Below the pieces are notes generated by a model, which did not search any database, had not been told where the DNA came from, and saw only the letters and a program-made list of their open reading frames with translations. Positions 3,001-55,920 of a stretch of 64,000 bases of DNA are shown piece after piece (the first letter of the stretch is position 1; every line of letters begins with the position of its first letter). The DNA comes from Amoebophrya sp. A120 (Eukaryota; Protista; Dinoflagellata): the NCBI GenBank assembly GCA_905178155.1, contig CAJINV010000001.1, forward strand, positions 4,302,233 to 4,366,232, written 5' to 3'. Made by a program: the position numbers and the translations under genes.

Positions 3001-5560
3001 CTTTTTTTGCTTGCTCGAAGTCAGAGTGGTTTTCCCTTGCTCTGCAGCCTCTTCGTCACTGTCTTCATCTTCTTCCGATTCCATATCTATCTCGGAGTCC
3101 TCTTCGCCGCTCTGCCATTTTTCCGGAATTTCTGCCTGCTCGTCAGGCTCGCCGATGTTTTCAAAAAATCCTGCAAAATCGAAGCCGAGCTCCTTCATAA
3201 AGGCAGGCAAAGCCTTCTGCTCCAGCAGTTCTGGAGCGCGGAAGTACAAGGCGCTAGCATTCGGCAATCGGCGGAACAAATCAAGTGCCTCCCGCGGATT
3301 TTCGAATTTTCGCGAAAAGAGTGGAAGCCTCTGCTTCTGAGGTTCAGCAGACAATTCGGGACCATTTTCGGCCTGGTGCCTCCGTTCAACATACCCCACA
3401 GCTACCGCTTCCTCGTAAGAAGTCTTGTGTATCGGTGGTTCTTCGGAGGACGATTCTTCAGAGTAGCTGCGGACACGCTTATTCGTGCCGGATGACGTAG
3501 TGGCATTGTTTGCTTTTGCAGCGATAGAAGAAGTTGGATCGGACTCTTTCTTCAGTGCTCTCTTTTTTGCCACCTCTTCCAATCGATCGCATTCGGCCTG
3601 AACTTCGGCCTCGACATCGTTCAAATACCTGCGCAGAGCCCCGGTGCTGCTATGGAGTTCTCAAGTGTTACATTCTCAACTGTTACATGGATTTGTAATG
3701 CAAGACTGGCGAAATTGGAAGGAGGAAGATTGCGCCTCTTGCATTACAAGTTTGGCGCAGATTTAGATGCTGTCTAGCCCTCCCGAAATTTGTCATGCGA
3801 AGCAGCTAGATCATCTGCCGCCCTAAGGTGCTTTTGCATGACAAATCCATGTAACAGTTGAGAATGTAACGTTTGAGAACGCCATAGCTGCTGAGTAAAG
3901 GCTTCAGGGAATCCTTTTTTTGTGTCGTCGCCGAATTTTCCAGATTCGGGTCCATCCAAACAAATACTTCCTGCTCACCACGGCTATTCTCAGGCGTATT
4001 TTGCACCAACGCTTCAATATCCAGATTATACAGGTAGTTCTCCACCAGCGCGTGGTACCGCTCCATGAAGCGCTTCACTTCCATGCGCCTCTTCACGCCA
4101 GCTTGCGTCTCGTCGAAGTTCGGGCCATATAGTAGGCGCCTCCTGGACATGCCCTCGACCTCCATGTCCTCATCCGAATTAATTTCCTCGCTACAACTTT
4201 TGTCGCCACCCATTTCGTCGTCTTTCGTGCTGCCTTCCTCGCTTCCGTCGCCGCTTTTCTCGTCCATCTTGGAAGCGGACTTCTCTTCTCCTGAATTGTG
4301 ACCTTCAGGAAGACCATCGTCTTCCCTGTATGCCGACATTAAGGCCTGTAGGAGCTGCGGCGGGACTTGACCCAGCCGTCGCTCTGCTTCCTGAAACCTC
4401 GCGAAATCAAGGGGCACGTAGCTCGCCAGAGTGAATCCACTGCTGAACCGCGCATTCCATACCTGAAATTCGTCCGCTTTCGTCGCATTTTCCAGATCCC
4501 GGGGGATCGCGACAAAGTGGTCGGGAAACGCAGCTTTTGGCAAGTCCGGTCTCAGGCTGCTGTGCTTCGCCTTCGCGAGCGTTTGTACAGAAGACTTGAA
4601 AACCTCGCCGGCCCACAATTTTAACTTTTCTTTCGAGGTTGTAGAACTGGACTTATTCGCAAAAGTCATCGCATCTTCCAAAACCGGGGCTGAGTGTGAC
4701 AAATGGACCCGACTGTGCGCAGCAATCGGATTGTTGCGGATGACGAGAGCCTGCTGCGCCCAGATGCTCTCGAGAAAATCCTGGCGAAGATTCACCGGGA
4801 AAGCCAGGTTCTCCACAAACTGCTCATCGAGGTCGGGATCGACAGGATACAGGTCGCCGTCCTCGTCTTCATTCTCCTCATCTGAGGAACTACTACCCGG
4901 GAAGTCTTCTTCATCTTCTCCACCCTCCAGGTTGTCGCCGTGTTTTCCTTTTTTCGTTGTCAGCGAGCCGCTTGTTTTCATGTTCTTGTCCTTTGTGCCT
5001 TTTTTCGCCCCCTTCTTGCCTTTCTTGCCCCGGCCTTTGCCTTTCTGTTTCTTCATACTATTTTTGCCCGTTTCAACACGTTCCGAGTCCTCTTCTTGGT
5101 CGGATGACGCGGAGTCTGAGTCGGAAGCTGAGTTTTCGTCGTCCTCGGGTGAAAGTAATGCGTCTGCCTCAGCATCCTTTTCCTCAGCTTTCTTCCCCAC
5201 AGGCGCGTCCTCCTCGTTTTCGGTTTTCTTCGCGTTTTTCCCCGCTCCTGCCTTGTCCCTGCGTTTCCGCTGTGCCTGTTTCGCTTTTCGTACGGCGGTC
5301 GGGTTGAAATACGGAACCAGAATACCGTTCCGGAACACGCGGCAATATTTTTGCAGTGATGGCTGTCGGGAGCGGAACGTGTTCGGGGTAATTTTGCTCC
5401 CGATCGTGTTCTCCCGAATTACTGCCATTTTTACGGACGTGATGTTGACCTTCTCCTTGACGACTTGCTGCATCTTCTGTTGATCAGCCACAGCAAGTTT
5501 GTCAGCCTTCTTCATGCTCTTCATCACGCCTTTTGCTTTTACGCCGGTACTGCCCTTCAT
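1..5560 (-). CDS. JmjC/cupin 2-oxoglutarate oxygenase (ROXA/NO66/cupin_4-like) with long K/D/E-rich extensions; 3' end runs off the window
   Basis: Exons 5560-3887, 3645-1715 and 1029-<1 join in frame (..KPLLSS|TGALRRYLND..; ..AARFL|SSSLGIRA..). Motifs ITDWHQDFQENFTIQLQGVKRW (HxD) and PGDIMYFPSGMWHKV (distal His). Intron 1030-1714 is GT-AG; the other intron is a TIR element. Confidence 0.8.
1158..1257 (-). ncRNA. C/D-box snoRNA, copy A (dual guide)
   Basis: Minus strand: box C ATGATGA (1252-1246), guide AGCATAGTTCACC, D'-like CGGA, hairpin, C'-like TGGCGA, guide ATCCAATTGATAGTC, box D CTGA (1166-1163). Intronic, same strand as host gene. Confidence 0.8.
1327..1419 (-). ncRNA. C/D-box snoRNA, copy B (paralog of copy A)
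   Basis: Box C ATGATGA (1415-1409) and box D CTGA (1334-1331). Both guides and the D'/C' boxes match copy A while the spacers have diverged. Confidence 0.8.
1439..1547 (-). ncRNA. Probable third C/D-box snoRNA
   Basis: 8-bp terminal stem TGTGCCTG/CAGGCACA (1439-1446, 1540-1547), box C-like ATGATAA (1534-1528), box D CTGA (1451-1448) preceded by ATCCAAGAATT, complementary to the conserved SSU rRNA AATTCTTGGAT as I recall it. Confidence 0.6.
3651..3886. mobile_element. TIR element / introner in the JmjC gene (236 bp)
   Basis: ~50-bp imperfect TIR TATGGAGTTCTCAAGTGTTACATTCTCAACTGTTACATGGATTTGTAATGC; TSD GCTGC at 3646-3650 and 3887-3891; removal restores the frame. Confidence 0.9.
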
Positions 5561-6361
5561 TTTGATGATTTTCGAGAGGTCTTAGTTGTCTTCTTGGATG
5601 ATCAATAAATATCAAATTGCCACCTTTGAAGGGATTCAAAGAAAGCGCAAACAAGGTTCTAGACCTAATAGCCAGTCCAGTTTGGATTGCTATTGCAATG
5701 AATTCCTATGTATGTGGCGAAAAACAGATTGAAAACCAGTGTGGTTTCTTCTACTTTCTTCTGCCTGACGTTGCGCACTTGTAAACATTCATTCACGTAG
5801 CTTGTAGACCTTCATTTAGATTTTCGCAGGAGCATTCGTCATATTGAACGAGAAGATGATCAAAAGGTTATCAATTCTGAGCCGACTGACGTTTCAACGC
5901 TCTTTTTTTTATGAAGAAGATCAAGTAAGTTGTCCAGCATCATGCACTGAGATCTGTCGACAATTTCTCAGACCATCTGATCATCTTCCTTTTTCCATGA
6001 AGATCAAGCAAGAGCTCAGGTAGATCGGTCCACAAATCAATTTGATCTGGATCGTTATTTCGAACGAGTTTCTGAAGAATGATCCGACAAACTCAACACA
6101 CGTGCTTCAAAAACAAAGCCGTCGCCGTGCGAAATCTTTCTCTGCAATCAACTAGGCTGTGAAATGTACAAAATAATTCTTCGCTTTCTTGAATCGCGCA
6201 TGATTGATTCTTAACTGCTGTTGTCGTAGTCGCTTGGTTTTTACAAGGAATGGAAATCGATGTGGAAATCTGCTGTAAGCAAGATAACGAAGCCGAGGAC
6301 TCGCAGTTGTTGTGCGCGCAACCGCTAAAGAACGCCAAGGACGAGGACATGGCCGACCTTC

Positions 6362-22000: not shown

Positions 22001-25000
22001 CGGCGAGCGGGCGACCCAGGTATTCCAGCGCTTGTCCCTGCGTCGCGTTGTTCCAACTGAAAGAATTGCCAAACACGGCCGCGACGCTGCCGGCGAAGTT
22101 TTTCTCCACTTCCAGGCATTTGATCGGGTCCCAGTGGTTTTCGCCCGGAAAGTTCCGCAACCGCGTGGAAATCACGCTCGCGCGGTCAAAGACCCGCGCT
22201 TTCGTCAACTCACGGAGGTACGCAATTTCGAAGTGCGTCTGCTGCCAGTCGTGCAGCAGGTACTGGAGGTTGAGATCGGTGGGTGGTTGGCCTAAATTCT
22301 GCACGAGCGCCATTTCCCTCTCCTCCGGTTTGGAGAAGTCGGCCTCGATTTGCGGCAGAATTTCTTTCCTTTGTTCCAAAAAGGTCTTCACCGTGAACAT
22401 CCTGCGCTGCAAGTCGTGCACTTGCTCGGGCTTGACGTGCAGGGCAAAGACGTTGGCGTACACGTCGAGCATCTGCTGAAATTTGTCGACATCGTGACCG
22501 TACGTCATCAACGGATGTGGGACTTGCGTTAAGACCGGGTCCTTCACCTCGCAATCGGTGGTCGAGTTGCGCGGTTCCAAAAAGCTCCGGATCGCGAGGT
22601 AGTGGTAGCTCGCGCCGCGGCCCTGATTCTCCGTCGGCTCAAAGGATTGCAGTAAATCGCTCGGCGCGAAGTTGTGCCAGTTGTACGTGAAAGAACCGTC
22701 GACGAAGGGCGTTTTTCGGGGCAGCTTCCGCGAATCGGTGCTCGCAATTCCAGTTTCCGGCAACGGGAATAAAGCTCGCTCCCGCGACCGGGCTTGGCAG
22801 ATCGGGTCATTGCGCGAAAACTTGTAGTTCTCCGGGTCGAAGGCGTTTGCGTGAAACGTCGCGTAGGTGTCCAGCGTGCGGGGCTTGTCGCGTCGTTTCA
22901 AATACCAATTGGGAAGCGTTTTTGCTTTTTTCGTTCCAAGCAGGCCGGCGTTATAGTCAAGACTTTCGTTCTCTGTTGCTTTTTTCTCATGGAGTGTCGT
23001 CTTCGCTTTTGCAGTGTTTACCTGATCTTCCTCCACCGCAAAGAGGGAAGATACGTAGTGATTCCCGAAGGCCTTCTCCTGTACTGGTTCATCATCTTTG
23101 CGGGAGGTGATGAGCTTATTCTTGTCTTTATTTCCAACCGCTGTTTGTTTGTCCCCCGTTCTTTTCGCCATCCCGCCACTAAGCCCGCGCTCGCGAAACA
23201 GGCTGTGATCGCTGGCTTCGCCGAAGTACTCTTCCGTCAGTTCCCCGTCGAGGAAGCTGCTGCTCAGCCGCTTCTGGTTTTCTTCAATAGCCTTCGACAG
23301 CGGCGGGTGCGCCACGCGTAGCATCTTGCCCTGAAACCCGTTCGCGCCGTTCAACCAAAGGCCTTCCTCGAGCGCTATGCTGGCGTCGCTGTCCACAACC
23401 GCAAGAGACCGAGAAAACTTCGTCGCAGGAGGAGGGTTGTTGCTGTGTTGGATAGAGTTCAACATCTTCACAGAAGTTGTTGGTTCTTCTTTCAGCCGTT
23501 TCAACTGCTGCACCAGCAAACTTCGCTGTTTCTGCACCAAATCCTCCGTCTGGATACTGTCGTAGTGCGTGTGGTTCAAGAGAAACTGGTAGAACGGCAC
23601 CAAGCCGATTTGCGAATTCACGGGGACGGCGGCGGCGCGACCCGCGTCGCGGACGATCATCGCGAGGCCGGACAAAACCGCAGTTGCAACTTCCCGCAGG
23701 ACCACCAAATACGTGTGCACGGGCTGCAGGTAAAGCTTGCTGTATTCCATGAAAAACTTCTGCTCCGGGTCCTGTTCCAGCTTGTCCGCAAGCACTTTCA
23801 CTTCTTTCTTCAAATCCTGAAAGTCGCGGTCGATGTCGAGCTTGAGGAACTCCCCCTCCTTGGGTAGAAAGTCGTCCGGGAGTCTCTTTTTCACTTCCTT
23901 GTCGTCGATGTCCTCGTCGGTAGCGATGATGCCCTCTTTCAGCAGTCTCGCCAGCCGCTGCCGCCGCTCCACCCGTTCGTCCCGGACCTGTTGCCGCTTC
24001 TTTTCCGTGAACCCCGGGGACACGTACTGGTCGATCAGGCCAAAGCATCGCAAGAAAAAAGCGCTACAGGTACAAAAAAATTGTGTTGCAGGAGACGCAA
24101 GACAGACAACCTTTGTCATGCAGGAAATGCTTGCGAGCCTCGTTTCCTACGTATTTTCCCTCAATGTGATCTTTGCATTACAAGTTTTCTCTGCCACACA
24201 GAGAAAATTTGTGATGCAGAAACTCCAACAAATGTGTAACTGTAACACTTTTTTCTCGTGATACAAAGTCGAACGCCGCCTGCAAGGCCCGGTCGCGCAG
24301 CCCGACGTGCTTGGGCACGCGGTTCTCCAACACGTGCAGCACAAAGTCCAGGGACTCCACCGTGGCGTTGGAAGTGCGGAAGTTCTGCCGGTTCTCGTAC
24401 ACCACCCGGAACAGCTCGTGGTAGTCGCGGAGGTAGGCGGCAAGGTCCTCGGGAAATTCGAACAGCGCGCGGAACTGGATATCACACGGCTCGACCACAC
24501 CATTCAGAATGGGTTTTCGAACCTTGGGGCACTGGAGAAGATTCTCGACCGTGAAGGGAGAGGTCGAAGTGATTCGAATATTGTTCATCGGGGAAACTGT
24601 AGTTTCTGTCACTATTGGTGTTGCAGGACTATTGTTTCCGCTTCCCGTGCTGGGCGCCAACAACATCTTCTGATGCCTCTCCTTCCTGTCGAACCGGGGG
24701 TCATACCGCAGGGTGTTCGTCCCTACATCTGTTTGCTCCTTGAAAATGTCGATCAGTTCCACGTTCCAAATCGGCGAAAAATGCGCGTGGCGGTCCGCTT
24801 TCTTCCGCATTTCCACCGTTTCCGGTAGATTCGCCTCCGACAGATCGTACAATCTGGGCCCGTGACTGGGGTCGACGGCCGCATGTATCGGGTTGGACAT
24901 GCCGAAATCCGACAGCGTCCGAGGTTTTCCGGTATCGTTCACCTCTCTTTTCCGTTCTTCGACAATCGTTTTTGGTGCCTCAATGAAAGTGCTGATAAAC

Positions 25001-34147: not shown

Positions 34148-37100
34148 CTACATGAGAACCCGGTCGAGCACATCCTCCACGGACGCAAAAGCTCCCTTCG
34201 ACCTTTGGCGCACCAAGTCCAGTAACAGCACCAGATCCCCCATCTCTAGGCAGGCCGGAATCACCTTGCTCACGTTGCTGGGCGCCCCGCCCGCATAGTC
34301 CGCTCCCTGTTTGAATTTGACCAGCATCAAATCGATGTCGCCGCCGGAAAGGGGAAGCGGCTTGAGAAGCTTCCGAACGGAAAAACTGGAAAACCCGTTC
34401 CGGTTTGCAGACGCGATATCAGTGACGAAAGCCGCAGGGTTGGCCTTGATGTCGTCCATTTTTCGTGAGAGTGGAACAACTACCGGAAGATTTGTAGCTG
34501 CTGTAGTTGATCCAGATGTAGTTGCCGAAGAAGATAGGCGTCTCGCCGACAGCGTGCGGACGCTGAGGAGCTTTGTGGAGTAGGCCTGTTCCAGCTTCAA
34601 CAGAGTGTGGAGGAGCTGTTCGTCAAGCTCGACTTCAATGTAGTTCTTGTCCAAAAAGGAAGAAAATTCCGACTCGCTGTCTTCAAGTTCAACCTTGTCG
34701 CTGGTCTCTTCATCTTCGTCCACTCCGTCTTCTGCGTCCTCCGTGCTCTCAGAACAATCGGAAGTTGCAGCCGCGCCCTCATCTGTATCGTCCTGCTCGG
34801 TTTGTTGATTCTGGTAGTCTTCGTCATCCGCATGATAATTCGTATTGTCGGAGCGCGGTCGGCCAGAAGGATCATCAACATGCGTGTCAAGTGCTTTTGT
34901 AGTCGGTGACCACCCAGACACAGAATCGACGACAGTACCCGGAACAGTTTCTCCTCGCTGCTCTGCACTGCAAGCCCCTTTGACCGACGTTTTTTCCTTT
35001 TTGTTTTTTCTTTTTGCTGCTGGCGTAGTTTTTCCACGTCCTCCGCTGCTATTTGTCTCGATCACGAAGCCGACTGCTTTTTTCTTTAAATTCATCGTCT
35101 TCGGGCCGCGATTCTTCTTTCTGTTGCCCTTGCCACCCCCCTTCTTTTGCGGGGCGGGGTAGCCCGCAAGTTGGTGCACGATGTGCAATGCTCCGCGGAT
35201 CAGCTTGCTTTTCACCTTTTAGTCCACAGGCCCCTCGTGATGCGTGTGTGGGAGATGGTGCTCCATGCACCGACACGGCTTCACCTTCACAACGCTCTGC
35301 TCTACAACTGCACCGGCCGCTGCACCAGCGTTGGTGATTTCTGTCGCTATCGGAATGACCTCGTCGATTGACAAGCTCGGACTGTTGTTCACTTCCAGCA
35401 GGTGCATTTTCATTTTCTGATCAAGGAGCACGTCGAATCCAAGTATTTGAAGACAGCGACAAGAAGAAGACGAGTTCTTACTGTCTTCCCGTCCTACTGC
35501 CCCTGGTCCTCGTCCCGCAGCCTCTTGCACCATTTCAAACGGCCTCGCGGACGCCAACAGCACTGGCGTCATCACTGTGACCCATTGGGAAACCACTTCG
35601 GAAAGTTGTTCCCAAAACTCCTCTTCGTCGAACGTATCGGGATACTCCTCGGCCAGCTGCTCGAGTGTTATCTCCAAGGACCGCTTCGTTGCCTCTCGTT
35701 CGGAAGATGTCTTGACCTCCTGGGGTTCCTCGGCAGCTGCAGACCCTGCTTCGTCAGTTGTATGACCGACAGCTCTGCTGGCATCCGGTGGACAAGTACT
35801 ACCCGCATTATGAACTACCTCGTCGACGACAGTTTGCTTGTGCTCCGCAGGGGAATGGGAAATTCGACTTCTCGGTGACATAGAGGCTCTATCGTCCTTC
35901 GCAGGTGCAGCTGCAGCGGCACGCGAAACCGGTACTACTACTAAAGCACTCTCCGTGGTCGTGACAAGCACATCTCCCTCTCGCACGTAGCCGGCTTGCC
36001 GCTTTTGAATCGAGTAATTCGTCAGGTGCTTCTGGCTGTTCGTCATGTTTTTTGCGTTCGGTTTCTCGTACTTTTCCGTGCAAAACCGGCCCAGGCCGTC
36101 CTTGCACAGGAAGACTCTCGGTTTTACTTCTTCCCCAAACAGACCCCCGATATGGAAGTGTCAGGATCGAAATCGACAAAATTGAAATATTTTGTCATGC
36201 ATAAAATGGATTCCAGTTCGAACCCACTTTCTAAGTGGCGCATGACAAATTTTGGTGGTGCCTTAATGCTGTTTAGGCAAAGAAGACTGATTCTCTCATG
36301 CTGCTTTAGCAGCTCGTGCTATAAGTAACCCCAAACAGGCTTACAGTCGGCCTCACTTGCCTGCTCTGCAACACACGTATTTCGAGTCATGCATTTTATG
36401 CATCACAAGTTAGCAGATTTTGTCGATTTCGATCCTGACACTCCCATACCCGACCACGATCGCGTACACCCGGAGATCAAATTTGAAACCGTTGAGAAGC
36501 AAAGGACTTTTCACATACGACTGCACCACCGCAGCCTTGCAGTTTGACGCCTTCAGTTCCAAGTCGCGAAATTTATCGATCAGGAAGATGCCATCGCCCT
36601 GCGAGCCGTCTTCCGGCTTGACGATCAAAGTCTTTTTCTTATTTAAAACCCGCTGGATCTGCTCTCCATCTTCCGGCCAAACGTATGATTTGGGAATGAA
36701 CTTCTGCAACGCGAAAGGTGCTGTAGTAGCGCTGGACAGAACGAATGTGCTGTCTCTATTTCCAGCGAGAGCTCCTTCTGCGCTAGTACCATTTTCCTGA
36801 TCCTGTTCGTCGTCATCTTCGTCCTCATAGTACTCTGCACCTGAGTTCTTCGAGGAGGTCGTGGCCGCTGCAGCTTTCCCTTCTATCTTGTCCTCCGGCC
36901 CCTTTAGCAATTGCTCCACCCGGCGCAGCCACCGGGTTTGGTTGCACTTTTCGCACAGGTCGCCCATTCCCGGGTACCGCGAAAGCCAACAATTTGACTT
37001 TTGAAACACCTGCGGTAGCTGCTCGAGCCATTCGTAGCTCTGCATCACCAGGCAGATAGAGTTGTTGCGCACTTTTTCGGTGACCAGGAGCCCAATTTCG

Positions 37101-38541: not shown

Positions 38542-41500
38542 CTACTTGTAGAGCAGCAACTGGTTGTCGTTTACGCTCTCCAGCGTTGGCCTGCGCTCGC
38601 CGCCACTGATGGGCCTCTTTCCACCCTTTTTCCGCGTTGCCGCCTGCTGTGCGGGCCCGACCGCGCCCACTGCGACGCCTAAGGGTGGAAGCCCCCCGGC
38701 GTCGAGCTGCCCGCCACCGATGACGGCATGGCTCACCCCGCCGGTTTTGCCCGGACGCGTCGAGGGCTGCTGCGCGCCGCTCGACTTGCGGCTGTTCGGC
38801 TGGGTGGGTTGGTGGGCGGAAACAGGGTTCAAGACCCCGACGTTAGTATCCTCAGTAAAAACGTACCCACACCAGAGTCAAGATGGCAAATCTGCTAGAC
38901 AAATCAGCCAGCTTTGGTCGTTTGGCATGACAAGTTCCTCTTCGTAGTGTAATCCTGTTTAGGTAGTTCAGCAGCTTCACAGATCTAGTATATCATTCTT
39001 ATCAAACAAAAAAAGTTCGTCACGATCACTTATGCGCATTTTTGCAATACAAAATTTTCTGTCATGCGTAAAAATGCATAACAGCCAAACTTCATAAGGG
39101 ATTTCCCTAGTGTTTCTGCAATACAAGGAAAATTTGTGGTGCGAATAAAAATTTGTAATGCAAAACCTGCAAGTTAGTGACTGTGACAAACTTTTTTCTT
39201 TCCATAATTCTGATTGTAGCATCACAAATTCCAAAACACGACTAGACAATGCCTCTCATGGCGCTCCGCATGACAAACCTTTTTGGCATGCAGATTTGCA
39301 TGACAACTCTGGTGTGGGTACGTTTTTACTCAGGATAGTTAGGCCCGGACACCCCGAACACCTTGTTGTAGTTCTGCTCGCGGTTGACTAACTCTAACCG
39401 GTATCAAATGCAAATATGTTTGAGTCTGGGAGATTGCGAGCTTTGTCATGCTAGTGCGGCATGACGCTGAGGTCTGTATTGCGTGGCCGCGAAGAGCTCC
39501 TCTTGCCTGTCATGCAAAAACGTAGTTTCTCATGCAGAGTACGCAACTCAGAACCACGGAAAAACTTGTCATGCTGACCAGCGCATTTTTACAGTGCACT
39601 CAGCTCACTATTTTTCCCTTTCTTGCATCACAAGTTTCCAGACCCAGACACATTTGCAATGCATAACCGGTAGTACTGCATCTCGTCGCGCAGCTGGTTG
39701 AACGCGGTTTCGCGGTCCCGGCACTCCTGGTGCAGTAGACGGATTTGCTCGACGTCTTCGGGCCGGGACGGTCGGTTCTCGAACATTTGCTGCAGCTCCA
39801 AGATCCTGGCCCGCAGTTGCTCCCCTTCGGCCTCAATGTCGGCGCGGATCTGTTGTGCAGCAAAAGCAATGGTTTCGTTTAGACTCTTACTGATTTATTT
39901 GATGCCTACTGATGAAACACTCTCGGTATCGTACTACATCGTTTGCTTATCGTTCACTACAACAAGCTCGAAGTAATTCGGATACTCTCGTACTAAGTAT
40001 CTCGGTAGCCTCGTGATTTGAAAGAAAAGAGAAAGCAAAGAAAGGAAAAGAAGAAAAGAAAGAAGAAGAAGAACCTCGATGGTGAGACTGGCTTTCTTTT
40101 GCAATCAGGTGCTGTTTACGAAGAATAAAAACCTTCCCCCGGTAGGTATCTGGACACGATACCTCTAGGCTTCGAGAGTCTGTTTGTTCGTATATCAGTC
40201 GCATTTTACGAGATCTTAGCATGGTAGCGGAGTTTTAGGCTAATCACCTAGGATCCTCCACAGAGCCCCCCGGCTGTAGAAAAAATTTACTTGTCTCAAG
40301 CTTTTTAGGGCCTACCGTTTTCGCACTGTTTAAACAAAACCAACACCATGGAACGCAGCAGCGGGAGCAGTAGCAGCAGCGGACACAGCAGTGGACGCAT
40401 TCCGGTGCCGGTGTGGACCCCGACAATGGGCCCACGGGAGTGGAAGGAAAAACTCCAATTGTGGTTGCTGGCATCGGAGTTATCGGAACATTTGATCTGC
40501 CCCACCATCATGCTGCAAGGCATCGAGCCCAACCATTACCATCCCCTTTTGGTTCGCCAACTTTTACAAATGGACCCGCGCACCTGGACCATGTCCATGA
40601 CCCCGGACTACGAAGGCAAGGAAGGAGAAGACGCCGACTGGATTTCGGGCATTCGCACCATGACCCCGGTGCAACGCTTAGAACGTGCGGTGACGTTTTT
40701 GGAACCGGTCGACGGGTTGGCCGAAGAAAAGCGCTACCGCCGGGTAAGCACTTTCGAACGGAAGGGGAACGAAGACTACCAAACCGCAACCACCCGCTTC
40801 AAGGCTTACGTGGTTGACCAGAAAAACGACCAGCGTCCGATGGATGAACGCGCGATCGTATCCGCCTACTTTTCGGGGATGCGTTTCGACCTGAACGATT
40901 CCAAGACGCTGCGCAACCACTTCGACTTGGCGAAATCGGGACAGGGAGAACACACGTTCCGCCACCTTTGCCAGCTGGTCGAAACTCTTTTGGTTCCGAC
41001 CTCTTTGGACCGCGCGGGAAACCGGTACGACCGACAGGGGGACGCGATTATGGCTATCGCGGGTTTGGCACAGATCCCGCGCTGGAAGGGAAACGGCAAG
41101 GGCAAGCACGGACGGAACGGTGGCAACGGCAAGGGAAACGGAAACACGAATTTTCAGTACAAACCCCAACAACGCAATGGTGGGAAACCGACCAAGGCCG
41201 GCGGGAAAGGAACGGGCCAGGGACAGAACGGCGGAAAGCCGCAGCGCAACGGCGGAAACGGCAAGGGCAACGGAGGTACGAAAGGCGGCCCCGGTGTTGG
41301 AAAAGGGAACGGAAACGCGGCGAAGTGCTGGATTTGTGGTTCCAACCAACACCTGCGGAAATCGTGCCCCCACCGTGGAAACGGCAGCGCGATGCTGGCC
41401 CAGGATGCTGACGCCGACGAGACGGAACATGCGGCCTGACTATCCCCACCGAAAACCGATGGAAAGTATGAAAATTTGAAGATGGACGATTTGCATCTAC

Positions 41501-44500: not shown

Positions 44501-47500
44501 CAAGGCCGAGAAAAAAGAGTCAGAAAAAATTTGGCTCAACCTGCCGCCGGAGCAGTTAGCCAAAGGAACAGTCGAGCTGGATTACAAGTGGTCTGTGCAA
44601 AACGGACTGAGTAAACTGGCGCTGGAGGCTTTTGTCAATGAGTTTGGAAGTTTGGAAAAGCGCAAAGTTTACAAAATAGTGGAGAAACCGCTTGGGCAGA
44701 AGTTGATCACTAGCCGCGTGATCTTCGCCGTGAAGTTAAATGCCGATGGGTCTCTCAAACGTGTCAAATGCCGCTTCGTGCCTCGCGGGTACATGGACCC
44801 CCGCAAAACCACTCTTCGTTTAGATCAGGACGTGGTGAGCCATGAAGGGCTGCTTTTGAGTCTCTGTCTTGCGAGCAAAAACCGATGGCAATCAAAGACG
44901 ACAGATTTTGAGACCGCCTTCCTGCAACAAAACGGATTCAAGGAAGGGGAGCCCAGGCCGTTCGTCGCCTTTCCTCAATTGCCTGAAGAGTGCGGCCCTG
45001 AGTTTTACGAAGCAATGAAATGGGAGGTCAATTCATGCTTGGAGCTGTTGATGGCACTTTATGGCTTGGTGGATGGACCTCGACGTTGGTATGTTGCCTT
45101 TTCTGACTTCCTCAAAGAAGTTGGATTTCGGCAACTAGGTGCTGACTTGGGATTGTGGGTGCTGGAACTGGATGAAAAAGACGAAGTCGTGAGGCGCCCG
45201 GACCAAGAAAATTCCAAGAAATCGGCAGAGAAAATTTTGGCCGAAGAAGTTCTGGGAACCGCTCCCATTGGTCGAATTGCTGAAGTTGTAAATCTTCACG
45301 TCGATGACAAGCTTACGGCTGGAGATAGCGCATTCGATCGGTATTGGCAAAAAGTTGCTGATCGTTTCAAGGTGGGTTCGGTCGATGACATCGATGAAAG
45401 CGGTGTCATTTTTTGCGGAAAATGTATCAGAAGAACCAAAGACGGTGGGTATGAAGTGGATCAAGAACATTATGTCGCAAAGTTCGAGCAAATTGCGGCA
45501 CCAGCAGACGCAAAAGACGAAGATCCACTACCTGCGGAATACCACACCAAGTACCGCAGCGCCATCGGGCGTTTGAACTGGATTTCCTACCGCACACGAC
45601 CCGACCTGACCTACGACACAAATTCGCTTTCTAAGCACGCTACAGCGCCGACATGGTCGCACCTCCACCAGCTCAATAAATTGATCCGGAAAACTTTGCA
45701 CAGCAGAAGCGTACGACTGAAAATACCGAAACTAGAGGGCGATTTGCAAATAGTTGCCTATGCAGATGCATCGTTTAACCGACTACAACCCGAAGCCCCA
45801 TGCATTGGGTCAATTTATTGGCTGAGTTCCATCCCAGACAAAGCCGAAACGCGAGGGGTGGACCAAGTTCACAAAATGGAGAAACCGACCGGGGCAGCGA
45901 TCAGCGCTACTGGAGTGCCGATCTACTGGCGCACGACGAGCGTAAAACGGAAATGCGATGCTATCCTGGATGCCGAAACCTTGTCGACGCAATTCGCCGC
46001 GAACGTGGCGAGATACCTCAGCGCCATCGCGATTTCCTTGGGTTTGGTTAAACCTACCGACCCTATCGTGATGCTGAACGACAACAACTCACTCGTGTCC
46101 CACCTGAAAACAAATAATCGCTGTCATAGCATGCGACTTGCAGCAAACTGGTACGGCCTGCGACAGCTTTACACGAGTGGGAGCATGGTGATTCGCTGGG
46201 TATGTGGCAAGACGCAAAACATCGCTGACGTTTTGACGAAAGGAAAAAGCCCTCTACTTCCATTGCTTTTACAAAATTTGCATCTTAATAAAATCTCCAT
46301 TCCGCGATGAGTTATTATATTTTTTCACAAATTCAGACTTTTAATTTGTCATGCTATTTTACATTCTTTTACAACTTCTTTATCATATGGTCAGCGCATT
46401 CTCATCGTGTTTCGCATTACAAATTCCGTTGACTACTACTCATACTCATCTTTTCTCCTTTTCCGCATTACAAATCTAACATTTACACTTTATTTTTTTT
46501 GACAAAATGATAATCAAGCCTCTTCCTGTAGCACCTTGAGTCAAATGATACGAGTACTCCCGTGCTGTTTTTGTTTTGCCATTTTGGCAGTTTTACGCTC
46601 TTCGATTTTATCTCACGTTCACCATTGCGATTCGGATTGTCATTGCTTTAATTTTTTTTGCTTTTCGCATGACAGATTCATCTTTTGCTTATTTTTATCT
46701 CACATTTTCAGCATCACATATTCCATATTTTCCTAGTGTTATGAATATTTTTTTTTGCTTTCTAAGCGGTGTTTGCTTCATTTCATATCATTTTGTTGCA
46801 AACTTTTACAATATTCAAATTTCCCGCATTACAAACCAACTCTTTTATTTCCCTTCGTGTCATGTTTCGCATTACAGATTTGGTTTTTATATTTCATGCA
46901 CGCACCTACATTTTTCAAATTTTTCTACTCTTTCTTCACGTTTGGTTGAGCCTTCTTACGAACTTAGGTTTTTATTTCCCTAGGTCGCTCCACATAGAAA
47001 TCTCATATAAATACTGGCCATATTTATTTTCGATTTTTCTTAGTGGGGGGAGTGATGAAACACTCTCGGTATCGTACTACATCGTTTGCTTATCGTTCAC
47101 TACAACAAGCTCGAAGTAATTCGGATACTCTCGTACTAAGTATCTCGGTAGCCTCGTGATTTGAAAGAAAAGAGAAAGCAAAGAAAGGAAAAGAAGAAAA
47201 GAAAGAAGAAGAAGAACCTCGATGGTGAGACTGGCTTTCTTTTGCAATCAGGTGCTGTTTACGAAGAATAAAAACCTTCCCCCAGTAGGTATCTGGACAC
47301 GATACCTTTAGGCTTCAAGAGTCTGTTTGTTCGTATATCAGTCGCATTTTACGAGATCTTAGCACCTACTAACTTATTTTCAGCCGAACAATGATGGCTT
47401 TACTTGTCAACCCAAGCTTTTTTCGCTCGCGCCTTCATCTGGAAGAGTAGAATAAACACCTGATCAAAACTAGTTATGACCCAAGTAGTACCTGATTCAT

Positions 47501-50500
47501 CCTCGCGACTTCGTCCTGGTGATTGGCCTCCAAGTTCTGCTTTTCTGACTCAAACGATGCTCTAATCTGTGCCTCTCGCTTGTCTGCGTCAGCCTGTGGT
47601 AAGAGTTCACGAGAACAAGCAGTGGTGCGTTGATGCATTTAGAAACGGCGAGTCGGACAACGTCCATGATCTTCCAGGATGAAAAAAAAAGCCGAACAGA
47701 CGAACGACTCATCTGAGAAGAAATTCATTATGAAGATCGATCAAAACAAAAATCTTGATGTTCTTTGCCGAATTATTACCTTCAGCCTCCTCAAGCTCTC
47801 GTCTCCTGATTGCATTAAATCTTCTATTCGCTTTTCCGAGGCTACCAAATCCGCCCGCAGTATCGCTATATCGCTCGTCAACTCGTCGATCTTGGAGGAG
47901 CTGCACCGCAGGTCTTTTTCCAGGGCGGCGCACTTGGCGTCGGTCGCCCGCTTCTCATCGGCGAGTTCCTTGTGCCGTTCCCTGGCGGCTTGCGTTTCCG
48001 CCTCGTGCTGCTGCCGCAGCTTTTCCATTTCCATCCGCAGGTTCCCGTCCAGCTGCGCCAGCTCCCCGTCGTGTCTCGATTTCAGCTGCTGCAGCGACGC
48101 CGTGTGTTGGTCCTCGAGCGCGGCAATCTTCTCCGTGAGCTCGATCTGCAGACGCGTTTAGGAGGTTTTGATACGATTTATTCTTCATAAACCCTTATTT
48201 TTACTTTTAGTGAGTAGCTCGCCGGAAAGATGAAGGACCTTTGTCTTTCACTTTCTAGTACTGTCAAACAGGAAGATGAAAACATCAATCACTACAAAAG
48301 CGTATATCACGTACGTTGTGCCGCTGCTTGACCCGCTCTAGCTCCGCGCCGTGCTTTTCGTAGATGTCCGCAATTTTCTGTTGGTGCTGTTGTGTCAGTT
48401 CCTGTACCATTTTCACTGCGTCGTCCTTGGCGTCGTTCAGCTGCCGATTCATCTGCGCCGTCATGAGGTCCATCTTCTGCTTCGCCTCCGTGGAAACTTC
48501 CCCCAAACCCCTTTCCTTGTCCTGCAGCTGCTTTTCCAAGGAATCGATGCTCTCGTCCTTCATCACTAAATTTCTTTCCAGCTCCTGTTTCTCGTTCCTC
48601 ACGAGTGTGAGATCCTTTTGCAGGTTCGTGTTGTCCTGCTTTGCCACCCGGCACTCCTCCGTTTCGCGGGACAGATCCTCGCGCATCCGCGCGATAGTAG
48701 CGGCGTGCCGTTCATCCGAGGAAAGATTCTTCGACTCAAGGTTTTGGACACGGTCGCGCGCAGTCTATGTTTTTATTTTCAGAAACCATGATTGACACTT
48801 TCATTTTCATCGCAAATCGACAAAAATCGTAATCGATTCAAGTGTACTGTAGTACTCAGCTGCAATGTGTTCTTCTACTTCTAGTACTAGTTGTTCCATC
48901 CTGATCCTGGTATCTTCTTTACTTGCGGTAATAAAGAACAGGAACAAAACTCATGATACCTTGAGTTGTTCGCCGAGACCCGCTGCCTCCGCCTCCTTGG
49001 CAGCAAGGGTCTCGCGCACCGCGTGGAGCTGCTTTGCGGTGTCGCCGCCGAGATCCTCGAGGTTGCGCCGCTTTGACTCCTCCTCTTCTAGTCGGCCCTG
49101 CAGAGTCGCCACTTTCTGTTCGAAGTCTGCGTGTTCTTTTTCCCGCGCCGCACTGGTTTCGTGGCGGTCCCGATCTCGATCGGTGATAAAGCTGCGCTGA
49201 AGCTCTTCTATTCGCTCGTTGTGCGCTTTTGTCAGTTCTTCTTTTTCTTTCGTATACTTTTCGCTCGCCGCCTCTGTCTTTGACGCAAAGTCGGCACTCA
49301 GGGACGCTTGCAGGCTTGCAATTTCCGCCTTGTGCTTTTCTATTGTCGCGTCCAGCTCCTGTTTGTGCGCTGCTTGTTTTTCTTTCAGCTTCTTCTCTAG
49401 TTCTTCTATTTCAGCTGTGTGCTTCTGCCGCAAGATGTCAATGTCGGTCTTGGCCCCACTACTGGTTTCTTCTATCTGCTTGCGCAAGGCGTCTATCTCA
49501 GACTGCAACTTGTCACGTTCCGCTCGGCTCGAGTCTCGCTCGCTCGTCAAGGTGTTTGCTTGCTCCTCCAACCGCTGTGCTCGTGTGTCCAGCTGATATT
49601 TTCATGGAAATGAAAAACGGTTGAATTTCATTGAAAGAAGCTACGCACAGACGTGCGACCATCAAAAAAACAAGTTGATGGAGAGAACCAGTAGCCGCTA
49701 CCGCTACCGAACAACAGTGTAGTACACAACGTACTCGCAAAAAATATACAAAAATTTACCTCTGCTCGCCGTTTCTCCGTTTCGCTAAATTTTTTCTCGA
49801 CCGCCTCTTTCCCGTCCTCCAGCGACTTTTTGGTTTCCTCCCAGCGCTTTTTCTCCAGCGCAAAGGAGTCTCGTAGTCTCTCGACCGTGTCCTGGGCTTC
49901 CCGGGAAGACATGCTGGCCTCGGACTTGTATATCGTAAGGAAAGATCCCCCCTCCCCATATTGAAAAGATATGTTTTCGAAAATTTGCGTTGCTGATTTG
50001 AGGTCACAAATCACATCTGTCTTGCAAGAAGAGAAGGGCAGAAGCTTCCGCCCCATTATGAAGCCGGTTTGTCATGCTGTTGGGACTACAGGGCAGCCGT
50101 TTGCCATGCTGAGCAACTAGATTCATACGCCCTTACCTACCCTGGGGATCTGGTCGCAATGCCTCCCTGCAATACACAGCTGATTTGTGTACACAAATCC
50201 AGCATCAGAAATTCTGTTTTGATATGGGGAGGGGGGATTTTTCCTCACAATATTGTAGCGCGAGAATTCTCTCTCCCGGTCGGCCGCTTTCGTCGTTTCC
50301 TCGTCTATATCAAATGTAAAAATGTCTGGGTCTGGAAGAATACGCGATTTGTCATGCAGCTTTTCCATGACCCGTGAGGTCTGGAATGCAGGACATAGCG
50401 TGACAGATTCTGTGCGATCTTTCCCATGCCTATCCTGCATGAGAAACTGCCTCCCGACTTGGTCAAAACTGGACGACTTTTGGTAATCATGCAACACAGA

Positions 50501-51663
50501 TTTTTGCATGCTTCAGATTTAGCACGACAAATTGCATTCTTCCAGACCCAGACATTTTTGCATTTGATAGTCTAGCGAGGCTTGAAGCTTCGCGACTTGA
50601 CTGCCCAACTCGGTCTTCATCTTCAGCAATTCCGCTCGTTCTGATTCTAGTCGCGACGCAGTCGCGGAACTACCCTCTCTCAGCCTTGACAAGTCTTCCA
50701 CCACCCGATCCCGGTCCTCCGCGGTCTGTTTGCGCCGAGTCTCGGTGTCCTCCAGCTCGGACTCTAGTGCCGTTTTGTCGGCGATCGCTTTTTCCAGCGA
50801 CTTTTGTTTTTCTGCGAGCTGCGAAGCCAAATTTGCACTGTTCTCGTCGCGCTCCTCTACTTTTCGCTTCCAGTCATTTTCGGCGTCGCTGCGCGCACCC
50901 TCGAGACTGCGGATCTGTTGAAATTATGGTGTGCATGATTCTTGTTGGTGTCCTTGCAGCAAAGAAATTTTCCGGCAGATAAGTATAAGTAATCTCAACA
51001 CAATCTTTAATTTTCTATTTCTCCTTGTCGTGATGTGGATTCCGGAATTATACACGACACGACGAGCAGCACAGCCTAGCACTACATCAGCACTGGACAT
51101 CAAAAATAGATTGATACTTTCGCATTCAGCAAGACTCTTTCTTCGTCCCACTTCGTGCTTTCTGCCTCCAACGTGCCCGACAACGTCGCTTTCTGGTCCA
51201 AAAGCGCCTGGCTGTGCTGGTCCACTTTTTGCTGCAAACTTCTGTCAAAGCTCTCCCGCTGCTCGCGACACCGCACCCGGAGCTCATCGAGCTCCTCGGT
51301 CAAGGTTGTGACCCGGTCGGTCCAATGTCGGAAGGACTCCTGCTCCTTTTTCACTTGGTGGAGTTTCAGGTCTTCGATCTCCTTCAGCATGTTTTGCTTT
51401 TCTGACTCCAGTTTTTCCTTCATGCCGCGACTCTGCTCCCGCACCGCCGTCTCGTTTTTTACCTTCTCAAACGCGTTCCAGGCGTCCTGGATTTTCGCGT
51501 TGCAGTTGCGGACGATCCCCTCGATCTCCTGCTCGTACGCGTTGGAAACCGACCGCAGATGCAGGTCCGCTTCGTCATTTTTCGTGTTCAAGTGGAAAAT
51601 GACCTTCGTGAGCTGCGCAATCTTCTTGCTCATCTTGTGGAAAGTGTCGTCGCGCTCCACCAT
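38542..51663 (-). CDS. FAM184-like coiled-coil protein, multi-exon
   Basis: N-terminal KMSKKIAQLTKVIFHLNTKNDE; C-terminal RPSRPEDV..YYRLELVNREQNYNKVF..PNVGVLNP, both FAM184 hallmarks. GT-AG introns (e.g. 50915-51117, 49593-49759), four introner introns and one Copia-containing intron. Confidence 0.85.
38847..39337. mobile_element. TIR element / introner in the FAM184-like gene, carrying a nested element
   Basis: 32-bp TIR TATCCT(C/G)AGTAAAAACGTACCCACACCAGAGT; TSD GTTAG at 38842-38846 and 39338-39342; removal gives GPN|VGVLNP. Confidence 0.95.
39000..39206. mobile_element. Nested TIR element (207 bp)
   Basis: Imperfect ~55-bp TIR TATCAAACAAAAAAAGTTCGTCACGATCAC.. / TATGGAAAGAAAAAAGTTTGTCACAGTCAC..; TSD ATTCT at 38995-38999 and 39207-39211. 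Confidence 0.85.
39402..39665. mobile_element. TIR element / introner in the FAM184-like gene (264 bp)
   Basis: Left end TATCAAATGCAAATATGTTTGAGTCTGG, right end CCAGACCCAGACACATTTGCAATGCATA; TSD ACCGG at 39397-39401 and 39666-39670; removal gives MQYYR|LELVNRE. Confidence 0.92.
39910..40221 (+). repeat. Copia-2 5' LTR
   Basis: Direct repeat of 47053-47364 with 3 transitions seen by eye. Confidence 0.97.
40222..40232 (+). other. Primer-binding site, tRNA-iMet type
   Basis: TGGTAGCGGAG directly after the 5' LTR, complementary to a ..CUCCGCUACCA tRNA 3' end. Confidence 0.75.
40348..41439 (+). CDS. gag: Copia-2 Gag
   Basis: 363 aa with GKG-rich repeats and a CCHC knuckle (CWICGSNQHLRKSC). Confidence 0.9.
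   Translation: MERSSGSSSSSGHSSGRIPVPVWTPTMGPREWKEKLQLWLLASELSEHLICPTIMLQGIEPNHYHPLLVRQLLQMDPRTWTMSMTPDYEGKEGEDADWISGIRTMTPVQRLERAVTFLEPVDGLAEEKRYRRVSTFERKGNEDYQTATTRFKAYVVDQKNDQRPMDERAIVSAYFSGMRFDLNDSKTLRNHFDLAKSGQGEHTFRHLCQLVETLLVPTSLDRAGNRYDRQGDAIMAIAGLAQIPRWKGNGKGKHGRNGGNGKGNGNTNFQYKPQQRNGGKPTKAGGKGTGQGQNGGKPQRNGGNGKGNGGTKGGPGVGKGNGNAAKCWICGSNQHLRKSCPHRGNGSAMLAQDADADETEHAA
41825..43867 (+). CDS. pol: Copia-2 Pol part 1 (protease, integrase)
   Basis: VVDPGCSRSLVG..PFLLGCD (PR); HERNWH..CPTC, VCIDT, LTDNGTEF (IN). Confidence 0.85.
   Translation: MSELTEEQTKSYEKFAGIFVVDPGCSRSLVGEATLQAFRSVFPHFVGEEFQLPKKLSYKFADGFTKKVEKGVSIQIGSAWRTFAVLTPPDTPFLLGCDILGGSVIDLEGFEIRKGEEVIPLQKRNGLYVVDFLKNFEKIFGSETGYHYANAGTAEELAFFTYSEVKKLHERNWHLPAKPLTFRYSEVFENEAERKKFEQIAALVVENCPTCAQLLRMQPKPKLGGKKISATAPNELVCIDTVCFVWKNKKCAVLHFVDAHSGWSFATICETESSGSEVVRGLRLWRKINGSLPTAILTDNGTEFINAKVFGYLSTVAGGVIHYRSPVREHEFISESHTRALGMLVDRLCGSPASHYTSLDFVDILQEALVCKNSYVRSSGHSSQFVQLGNDHSQDVLRDLAPGPSIAKISKTDQEFASQRAQLRNEAAKLVNFEAQTKGISEILNNQSQHASAEFYYNGDRVFVNVDTKPEDKTTGRTRWAGATVVGTKGTKTVVVQFDDGTMKQAHARECRRLPPSEIEVVEVLPEEYQDLATNLESQLLQMQPEEEQENAETDATDVDKIVVDVMKANAKNLHSAAAARDDTTRRMAVQKSLFGSVKVIQASCRIGATRFDEPVLIAGNAQANREKLKTVRTVHATFTPKGKLLEVKYLKGPKVIQRAQEPRGVFDICCSRKSSHCRA
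43959..46310 (+). CDS. pol: Copia-2 Pol part 2 (RT, RNase H); frame open from ~43779
   Basis: VKCRFVPRGY, DFETAFLQ, ALYGLVDGPRRWY, LHVDD, TRPDL, YADAS, NIADVLTK. Confidence 0.9.
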   Translation: MESLGGLAMVELQWLAHYLSIPLAAQKDELLKRIKSHYEHTEELAFFSLGAPEAEFAYLSSQQKQSLSLFQDFFAGFVDDSTTRAEFLPGSRPFELINSTLNLPSLAGVVIRKNCQRVPTKTGLEKRPEIPNQHSATFILIPNAPARSASVGEAVSKRDLVVSLVFEDPAFKSVPTEPTEVKAEKKESEKIWLNLPPEQLAKGTVELDYKWSVQNGLSKLALEAFVNEFGSLEKRKVYKIVEKPLGQKLITSRVIFAVKLNADGSLKRVKCRFVPRGYMDPRKTTLRLDQDVVSHEGLLLSLCLASKNRWQSKTTDFETAFLQQNGFKEGEPRPFVAFPQLPEECGPEFYEAMKWEVNSCLELLMALYGLVDGPRRWYVAFSDFLKEVGFRQLGADLGLWVLELDEKDEVVRRPDQENSKKSAEKILAEEVLGTAPIGRIAEVVNLHVDDKLTAGDSAFDRYWQKVADRFKVGSVDDIDESGVIFCGKCIRRTKDGGYEVDQEHYVAKFEQIAAPADAKDEDPLPAEYHTKYRSAIGRLNWISYRTRPDLTYDTNSLSKHATAPTWSHLHQLNKLIRKTLHSRSVRLKIPKLEGDLQIVAYADASFNRLQPEAPCIGSIYWLSSIPDKAETRGVDQVHKMEKPTGAAISATGVPIYWRTTSVKRKCDAILDAETLSTQFAANVARYLSAIAISLGLVKPTDPIVMLNDNNSLVSHLKTNNRCHSMRLAANWYGLRQLYTSGSMVIRWVCGKTQNIADVLTKGKSPLLPLLLQNLHLNKISIPR
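47053..47364 (+). repeat. Copia-2 3' LTR
   Basis: Follows the PPT and precedes TSD CCTAC. Confidence 0.97.
49931..50252. mobile_element. TIR element / introner in the FAM184-like gene (322 bp)
   Basis: TIR TATCGTAAGGAAAGATCCCCCCTCCCCATAT / TATTGTGAGGAAAAATCCCCCCTCCCCATAT; TSD TTGTA at 49926-49930 and 50253-50257; removal gives FSRYK|SEASM. Confidence 0.93.
50308..50569. mobile_element. TIR element / introner in the FAM184-like gene (262 bp), same family as 39402-39665
   Basis: TIR TATCAAATG(T/C)AAAAATGTCTGGGTCTGGAAGAAT; TSD GTCTA at 50303-50307 and 50570-50574; removal gives ASLD|EETTK. Confidence 0.95.
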
Positions 51664-55025: not shown

Positions 55026-55597
55026 CTTGCCTGCTTTTTTCGGAAGTTACTACTACCCGAACGAACTGCTCCAAAAACTACTCTTTTCGCCGTCGATAAA
55101 AACCGTACTGACTTCTACTCGACGATTATCTTCCCCACCAGCAATGTGGGAGGTGCTATGTTCGTTAGTCTGGTGCCGCTGTCCTCGTCGTTGTTGAAGA
55201 GAAATAATAGCTGTTGAGGGTCTAGTCGCACTTGATGTAGTTCCACTTCCTGCCACTATGTGTAGAAGCAGGTCGCTTTTTGCAATAGTCAACAACAGTT
55301 CTTCCTCGTCATCCGAGTTTTTTCGTGCTGAAGAGGCCGCACTCGTTAGAGCAGTTGCTCCAGTCGCTGCGCGGTGCGGGGGGATGAAATACAGCAGGTC
55401 GTCTGTTCTTCTACCATGAAGAAGACTCCTCCTCGTGTTCTTCTTGCTGGTAGCACTACTAGCAGCTGATGCCACTTCCTTCAGCTGTAGTATTCTGCTG
55501 TTGCGCGTTTTGCGTTGCTGGGGCGTCGCCCATCCGAAAATGGACCTCTTCCTTGGCTTCGGCTTCGAAACATGCACTTCTATTCCTGCTGCTCGTG

Positions 55598-55920
55598 TAT
55601 CAAAATGAAAAAAGCCCCCACCCCATATCAAATGGGAAATCTGTGATGCAGGATTTGTGTACACAAATGCGCGCTGTCATGCAATACGGCATCGCAACCA
55701 GATGCGCAGCCTACGGAGGGACATTTGGGTCTAGGTGCTTAGCATTACAAACGGCTGTCCTCTAGGCCCAACAGCATGCCAAACCGCTTCCATAATGGCG
55801 CGGAAGCCTCTGCGTTTGTCTTCTTGCAAGACAGACGTGATTTGTGGTCTCAAATCAGCAAGACAAATTTTCGAAAGCATGCCTTTTTGATATGGGGAGG
55901 GGGGATTTTTCCTCTCAATA
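55598..55920. mobile_element. TIR element (323 bp), inverted homolog of 49931-50252, upstream of eIF5
   Basis: TAT...ATA ends with CCCCCACCCCATATCAAA / TTTGATATGGGGAGGGGGG; TSD TCGTG at 55593-55597 and 55921-55925; internal sequence aligns with the reverse complement of 49931-50252. Confidence 0.92.

Follow-up and report, generated by a model that had tools for sequence, protein, structure and literature searches.

A spaced internal motif shared by families of Amoebophrya introners, a candidate DNA site for their propagation

We analysed a 64,000-nt stretch of the genome of the dinoflagellate Amoebophrya sp. A120 (contig CAJINV010000001.1, positions 4,302,233 to 4,366,232; hereafter the window), in which nine short elements with terminal inverted repeats (TIRs) carry an internal motif of the form GCAT[G/C/T]ACA[A/G][A/G]. 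Such elements, known as introners, are intron-forming miniature transposons. The motif recurs in all introner families of a larger sample, lies at a set distance from the element ends, tends to be repeated on a lattice of about 16.4 nt and is depleted of those mutations that are shared between copies. We consider it somewhat better than an even bet that the motif is an internal double-stranded-DNA binding site for the machinery, a transposase or a TnpA-like helper, that would mobilise introners with TAT..ATA ends and 5-bp target-site duplications (TSDs).

Results

The motif is concentrated in the TIR elements of the window

Elements were detected in the window from inverted repeats and flanking duplications, with no use of the motif. 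Nine were found, 207-491 nt long and 2,414 bp in total, all bounded by 5-bp target duplications (9/9) and by TAT..ATA ends, one end reading CAT (Table 1). Seven have ends of the form TAT, 7 nt, AAA; those at 3651 and 36151 have TAT and lack AAA at positions 11-13. Exact matches to GCATNACAA on both strands of the window number 26, against 2.37 +/- 1.45 expected and a maximum of 6 in 100 dinucleotide shuffles. Twenty-one lie in the nine elements (4, 3, 3, 4, 1 in the nested element, 3, 1, 1 and 1, in window order), four in the 3' non-coding region of a copia retrotransposon (46311-47052), one in a pol open reading frame (ORF) and none elsewhere.

A weight matrix trained on other loci finds 3-6 copies in each of the nine elements. 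Its matches amount to 40 in the element DNA and 7 in the 742-nt copia region; what is left of the two long-terminal-repeat (LTR) elements has a single match, as does the remainder of the window (~46.7 kb). There were none in eight RNA-supported GT-AG introns (about 1.4 kb, boundaries approximate), so that the motif is far from equally common in canonical introns and intergenic DNA. A preliminary description of the window had assigned the motif to every TIR element. The 14 positions that it quoted all bear the motif within 1-2 nt and all nine elements carry it, with the qualification that the copia region shows it to occur outside TIR elements as well. At two degenerate sites, reads from other copies of the families restore the motif, which indicates that the window copies have lost it there: at 50525, T makes up 99% of the aligned DNA depth and restores GCATGACAA, and the motif at 39139 is intact in the majority of aligned relatives.

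The motif recurs across introner families

The terminal-repeat pattern of families F0 and F1 retrieved at least 152 loci, all in one assembly (JACKZZ01 contigs), which were merged into 63 contigs that span 575 kb, with 73 short loci adding 46 kb. A caller blind to the motif returned 383 candidates from these loci and none from shuffled loci; 381 simple elements were kept. An exact copy is present in 114 of the 117 elements that match the retrieval pattern and in 243 of the 264 that do not, some of the latter being F0 relatives. The elements hold 777 motif copies against 6.2 expected in shuffled elements, a density of 8.0 per kb, whereas 447 kb of DNA with the elements masked has 0.18 per kb, and at least one match to the matrix, which was trained on these same elements, occurs in 380 of 381. 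All 15 consensuses of families with at least five members contain the motif, and eight of the nine window elements match one of these consensuses at 75-89%.

The overall consensus is GCAT[N]ACA[A/G][A/G]T, with a central base that varies freely yet avoids A (G 52%, C 28%, T 17%, A 2%). Over 762 element ends, positions 1-3 read TAT in 98-99%, which the caller requires, and positions 11-13 are A in 89-96%. The earlier view that the families differ apart from the motif needs correction, since F0/F1/F13, F5/F7/F9/F12 and F3/F10 have common interior homology; about nine groups remain when the 15 families are collapsed on this basis.

The AT-rich DNA outside called elements contains 148 matches against about 20 expected. 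Many of the matches that lie outside called elements resemble missed or decayed introners. In one locus, motif pairs 51 and 31 nt apart (L020:14752-14803 and 15856-15887) lie within putative GT-AG introns that have no terminal repeats; these are possibly introners that have turned canonical. Two further loci are of note. One holds an ordinary F0 introner with a ~710-nt insertion (L057:10001-10972, 972 nt) that ends in an A-rich (poly(A)) tail and whose duplicated flank includes a motif copy. In the other, an 866-nt TIR element with TAC..GTA ends and ~50-nt repeats (L019:11405-12270), the only one of its kind in the sample, is devoid of GCATNACA and has its own repeated word, AGTGAAA, in 8 copies, a pattern that fits group-specific end-binding proteins.

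The motif is anchored to the ends and spaced at about 16.4 nt

No exact copy lies nearer than 28 nt to an element end. At 564 of the 762 ends, the centre of the outermost copy is 34-53 nt inside, with peaks at 36-37 and 44-48 nt. Orientation is biased at these 564 ends: 428 first copies read TTGTNATGC inward and 136 the reverse.

Spacings between copies gather at 15-18, 31-34 and 46-50 nt regardless of orientation. In three subsets with one family per group the period is 16.25-16.5 nt (z about 7.0, 0 of 2000 randomisations), and exact copies by themselves give p=0.0095; when all 15 families are included, a 31-nt peak ranks alongside that at ~16.4 nt. Half of the family-weighted spacings in individual elements fall on the lattice (50% against 30% expected), as do 20 of 42 close pairs of matches outside called elements (24.5% expected, p=0.001). 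A period of ~42 nt, guessed from the window alone, was dropped when the larger set gave ~16.4 nt. The flanks of same-strand pairs 30-34 nt apart are hardly more alike (identity 0.32) than flanks compared across groups (0.28). The lattice is therefore not accounted for by tandem duplication of recent date; Tandem Repeats Finder reported weak two-copy arrays only.

In the F0/F1/F13 and F2 groups, a near-copy of the motif sits immediately after the TAT of some ends, and the "7 variable nt + AAA" may be a degenerate motif site in these groups. Across all ends, 100 of 762 come within two mismatches of the motif, and mean scores are still negative.

Shared mutations, and not private ones, are depleted in the motif

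In five families, motif columns diverge by 4-10%, similar to the terminal 30 nt (6-11%), while the interior diverges by 19-27%. Private (singleton) alleles are as frequent in the motif as in the interior (0.60 and 0.58 per column), whereas shared alleles are 4-fold rarer in the motif (0.18 against 0.79). On the trees of the five families the ratio of internal-branch to terminal-branch changes is 0.19 in the motif and 0.50 in the interior (odds ratio 2.6, p=3e-9), and the TIRs behave alike at 0.27; the sites were defined on the consensus and terminal branches include unsampled lineages. Private mutations thus do hit the motif, and the strong deficit of shared ones suggests that selection acts when elements are copied.

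Motif-bearing elements lie in both gene orientations

A codon model assigned a gene strand to 235 of the 381 elements. Family members occur in the inferred genes in both orientations (90 vs 115), and motif copies are divided between the two strands relative to the inferred sense (301 vs 363). In 80 of the 235 elements all exact copies are on one strand, 32 one way and 48 the other. A spliceosomal cis-signal would be strand-specific and would occur in ordinary introns; here the copies fall on both strands and the eight RNA-supported GT-AG introns have none. Copies are found in some putative GT-AG introns of related loci. On present data the motif fits best as a site in duplex DNA.

A motif cluster in a copia retrotransposon

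The seven matrix matches of the copia 3' region compare with a shuffle mean of 0.06; they are centred at 46350, 46418, 46469, 46671, 46715, 46830 and 46873, six of them on the element's sense strand, and their spacings (68, 51, 202, 44, 115 and 43) are not clearly on the lattice. An origin of the cluster from an abundant introner was rejected, because the region is single-copy (depth 33-36 in run X1) and its best match to any of the 381 introners is 31 nt. No RNA contig covers the region, which does not show silence.

A second copia LTR retrotransposon, at 10109-17492, has almost no 3' non-coding region and a single motif match, in coding sequence. Both copia elements have near-identical LTRs and 5-bp flanking duplications (TAAAG and CCTAC), and in both gag and the next ORF share one frame with a single stop between them; the element at 39910-47365 has its pol split over further frames. 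A tblastn search of the gag and pol ORFs of the window against the 575 kb of loci gave no match, and in viral contigs the triple-motif pattern occurred 0 times and no relatives of the copia reverse transcriptase were found.

Six window elements are removed from RNA-type contigs together with one duplication copy

Table 1. Introners and motif-bearing copia features of the window (positions of exact motif copies, with strand, unless stated otherwise)
Feature	Coordinates	Strand	Target-site duplication	Motif copies and remarks
TIR introner, F6	3651..3886		GCTGC	3693(-), 3741(+), 3790(-), 3836(+); centres 48/49/46 nt apart
TIR introner, F5	24046..24263		CAAAG	24113(-), 24175(+), 24209(-); left end CAT, not TAT
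TIR introner, F8	36151..36448		CCCGA	36192(-), 36240(+), 36400(+)
TIR introner, F4	38847..39337		GTTAG	38925, 39219, 39268, 39298 (all +); contains nested element
Nested TIR element	39000..39206		ATTCT	39153(-); near-copies 39044, 39067, 39076, 39118, 39142
TIR introner, F1-like	39402..39665		ACCGG	39443(-), 39566(-), 39625(+)
copia LTR retrotransposon	39910-47365	+		rve and RVT_2 domains; LTRs 99% identical
AT-rich 3' non-coding region of this copia	46311..47052	+		7 matrix copies, 742 nt
TIR introner, F3	49931..50252	forward on +	TTGTA	50069(-); near-copies 50109, 50202
TIR introner, F0 (commonest sampled family)	50308..50569		GTCTA	50349(-); near-copies 50437, 50522
TIR introner, F3	55598..55920	reverse on +	TCGTG	55742(+); near-copies 55649, 55682, 55774, 55858

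Evidence for splicing was drawn from the contigs of X3 and X6, which were classed as RNA by a tool's guess and in both of which CT..AC introns are skipped too; the raw RNA reads of X9 and X10 gave no exon coverage. The six outer elements with such RNA-type data are all removed, without GT-AG ends, four by a joint or contiguous record and two by record length. Joints at 38841->39338 (491+5 nt), 39394->39664 (264+5 nt) and 55592->55921 (323+5 nt, with a 5-nt ambiguity) are found in both X3 and X6, and contig 17 of X6 runs gapless from 36145 to 36449, skipping 298+5 nt of an element that interrupts a tubulin-tyrosine-ligase-family domain. Removal of the elements at 49931 and 50308 is deduced from the 561 nt between the flanking pieces of X6 contig 14, which equal 1155-(322+5)-(262+5). 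The unit removed is thus the element and exactly one copy of its duplication, and F3 is spliced in both orientations (49931 and 55598). For two further elements removal was made in silico: without the element at 3651 and one TSD copy a stop-free frame grows from 682 to 1242 amino acids (aa), and without that at 24046 a reading frame grows from 1683 to 2113 aa.

The F4 introner contains another introner, and the 491-nt composite leaves as a single unit in the RNA-type contigs. The nested element is missing from other F4 copies, as seven DNA contigs carry the joint 38996->39210. Run X1 has a flat depth of ~30 and a summed depth of 10^4-10^6 over the elements, a figure that is not a copy number; values this high indicate genome-wide repeats. 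In run X9, from another sample, reads match 50483-50569 only. They represent an F0-like element end, mostly less than 90% alike and with the motif intact, joined to one foreign flank, so that a relative appears to be retained in the RNA of another strain or organism. Two adjoining long ORFs with JmjC-like domains lie on the minus strand at 1612-8911, one of them interrupted by the introner at 3651.

Discussion

A candidate binding site for the mobilising machinery

Judged by their ends, direct repeats, splicing and family lengths, the window elements match the published introners of A120. Published work is cited here from the available text of each source. The introners described by Farhat et al. 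(2021, PMC7789003) and Gozashti et al. (2025, PMC12130899) likewise have TAT + 7 nt + AAA ends, direct repeats of 3-5 nt, non-canonical splicing and no coding capacity. The family lengths found here (109, 149, 209, 252, 262, 279, 305-311 and 322) match A120 families of 106, 149, 209, 252-260, 278, 305 and 310-322 in PMC12130899, a comparison made by length over 40 of the 58 A120 rows of its file 8.

In the mechanism that we favour, several protein units would bind cooperatively to the motif copies, starting 34-53 nt inside each end and continuing 16, 32 or 48 nt further on, and would build a paired-end complex; a catalytic step at the TAT termini would then produce an insertion with a 5-bp stagger. 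An element that loses a site after insertion would stay in its gene and would seldom found further copies. A precedent is offered by the Emigrant miniature inverted-repeat transposable element, whose internal repeats are bound cooperatively by a transposase (PMC1636448). The preliminary description had proposed one trans-acting factor for all families and had left undecided whether it would be a mobilising enzyme or a splicing factor. A common factor is in keeping with the presence of the motif in 15 of 15 consensuses, its TIR-like conservation, its distance from the ends and the lattice, and the copia cluster suggests that such a factor may not be exclusive to TIR elements; a role in propagation at the DNA level is favoured over one in splicing.

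A number of observations weigh against this assignment. Terminal-branch changes per column are about half as frequent in the motif as in the interior (1.45 vs 3.14), as are rare variants per cell (0.028 vs 0.057), and some weak selection may act after insertion besides that on copying. Within the nine elements of the window the lattice shows only weakly (14 of 31 spacings, p=0.053), and spacings of 39-40 and 59 nt fall off it. When the motif is compared with TIR positions 4-13, position 4 is the best offset in only three of nine groups. The gene-strand model missed two of the eight window elements (6/8 right), and a mild strand bias is seen where the copies of a family are asymmetric (47 vs 28, p=0.037). 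A TIR transposase would have no need of the cluster in an unrelated LTR element. Finally, neither an autonomous element or transposase nor a candidate binding protein was identified in the window or in the 575 kb of loci, a small part of the genome, and no transposase is reported for A120 in the available text of Farhat et al. (PMC7789003). A 6.2-kb "autonomous" candidate in one locus (L055) was rejected as a false pairing of two 150-nt elements.

Alternative explanations

Unlikely in our view, though it has to be taken seriously, is that a chromatin, insulator or anti-silencing protein, encoded by the host or by a mobile element as is VANC of Arabidopsis, binds motif DNA and keeps introners and copia open or active, so that propagation would be aided indirectly and outside a transposase complex. 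Such a protein would account for seven copies in the non-coding DNA of an unrelated single-copy copia element, and VANC6 motifs are likewise found in an unrelated transposon (PMC5735166). It also predicts both the depletion of shared mutations and the independence of orientation, and the excess of matches in AT-rich DNA outside called elements is in its favour. On the other side, the fixed distance and preferred orientation relative to the ends link the motif to the termini, and the introner copies, unlike VANC sites, do not arise by tandem repeats. The argument from copia concerns one cluster, whose spacings do not clearly follow the lattice, and the other copia of the window has almost no 3' non-coding DNA to compare. 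Even as a single case, the cluster means that a shared host or anti-silencing factor stays a contender.

That the motif acts in RNA, where a splicing factor or endonuclease would read it as a single strand or as a stem of two opposite copies and remove the non-canonical intron with one TSD copy, we regard as improbable. Six elements are indeed precisely removed in RNA-type contigs, and Amoebophrya is reported to have no detected U1 small nuclear RNA (PMC7789003). Of the 154 consensus copies, 72 are predicted to fold in register against another copy, with 81% of motif bases paired compared with 63% of the other interior bases; the mild strand bias and the fewer terminal-branch changes would also be expected. 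The remaining 82 of 154 copies, however, have no motif partner, and in families F9 and F11 none is paired. The variable base shows no covariation between predicted partners (observed/expected 0.35/0.35, 0.59/0.59, 0.85/0.79 and 0.60/0.51), Rfam gave no match at gathering level and two weak ones far below the gathering score, private mutations accumulate in the motif, and exact copies confined to one strand are seen in either direction. The occurrence in both gene orientations and the lack of covariation argue against an RNA splicing signal; we infer that splicing would instead depend on the terminal stem together with the 5-nt repeats.

Very improbable is the copying of introners through RNA by the copia machinery, with the motif serving both kinds of element for packaging or as a nucleocapsid signal and the integrase of copia making the 5-bp duplication. 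The sense-strand position of six of the seven copia copies and the 5-bp duplications flanking both copia elements would fit, and A120 family 38 has TIRs together with copia/gypsy-like ORFs (PMC12130899). Introner ends are TAT..ATA, however, while LTR ends are TG..CA, no LTR or primer-site similarity was seen, and a lattice that is independent of orientation fits duplex DNA better. A functionless relic of one ancestral element is scarcely credible: several families have common interior homology and all have TAT ends, but motif columns are 2-6 times less diverged than the neighbouring interior with a central base that is free yet avoids A, the groups have the spacing in common despite differing in the number, order and orientation of copies, and the analysis of shared and private mutations largely refutes it.

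Comparison with known systems

A mobilisation site of the kind that we favour resembles the subterminal repeats of Emigrant/Lemi1 (PMC1636448), those bound by TNPA in En/Spm (PMC2613891) and the inner repeats of Tol2 and Sleeping Beauty (PMC8151067), which are also short motifs inside the TIRs, in both orientations, sensitive to arrangement and conserved with the termini. In contrast to these systems, a single motif is common to about nine groups whose TIRs differ, and its copies extend through the entire element on a ~16.4-nt lattice. Its likeness to the TIR appears slight, an LTR element carries it as well, its host elements behave as introns, and there is no known cognate transposase. The targets of VANC proteins in Arabidopsis VANDAL elements (PMC5735166) are similar in being 8-9-nt motifs in non-coding mobile-element DNA that are found in an unrelated element as well; they multiply by tandem repeats and differ between families, whereas the introner motif is common to all families examined and anchored to the ends. 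IS3EU and GingerRoot (PMC10045372) have TA..TA termini, as here, and integrase-like transposases, and A120 family 38 is annotated "Ginger, 5-bp TSD, TA/TA termini" (PMC12130899). The shared TA..TA ends suggest an enzyme of this type. The TSD of IS3EU/GingerRoot is usually 6 bp, in contrast to the 5 bp of 9/9 window elements and to identical 6-bp flanks in 0/381 sampled ones, and we therefore do not assign the introners to this group.

Significance

The elements themselves are already known, while the shared internal motif, its anchoring to the ends, the lattice, selection at the level of propagation and the copia cluster appear to be unreported. The A120 introner literature (PMC7789003 and PMC12130899, in their available text) describes terminal repeats, with no internal motif, spacing or link to copia. 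The text of PMC7789003 and its text supplement contain 0 occurrences of GCAT, ATGC or MEME, although figures S19 and S25 might show interiors; the searched text of PMC12130899, which excludes its files 13-14, contains 0 of "subterminal" and "internal motif". The available text of bioRxiv 2020.10.14.339549 was among the literature compared, and no description of the motif was found among the papers listed by searches on Amoebophrya introners, non-canonical introns and the motif strings, within a coverage that leaves aside subscription papers and theses.

PMC7789003 states as open questions by what route tens of thousands of non-canonical introns have spread in A120, where no transposase is recognised, and how their splicing works. 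A conserved and spaced motif provides a bait for finding the binding protein, a signature for finding both the autonomous element and decayed introners, and a means of separating mobility from splicing by mutation. A bolder proposal, which we hold to be doubtful, is that the introners are spread by a mobility system not described before: a single sequence-specific protein would polymerise along the whole element on the ~16.4-bp lattice, serve many TIR families and be recruited by an LTR retrotransposon too. If this were true, the polymerising protein would act as a licensing factor common to these kinds of mobile DNA, and might also mark the elements for removal from RNA independently of U1.

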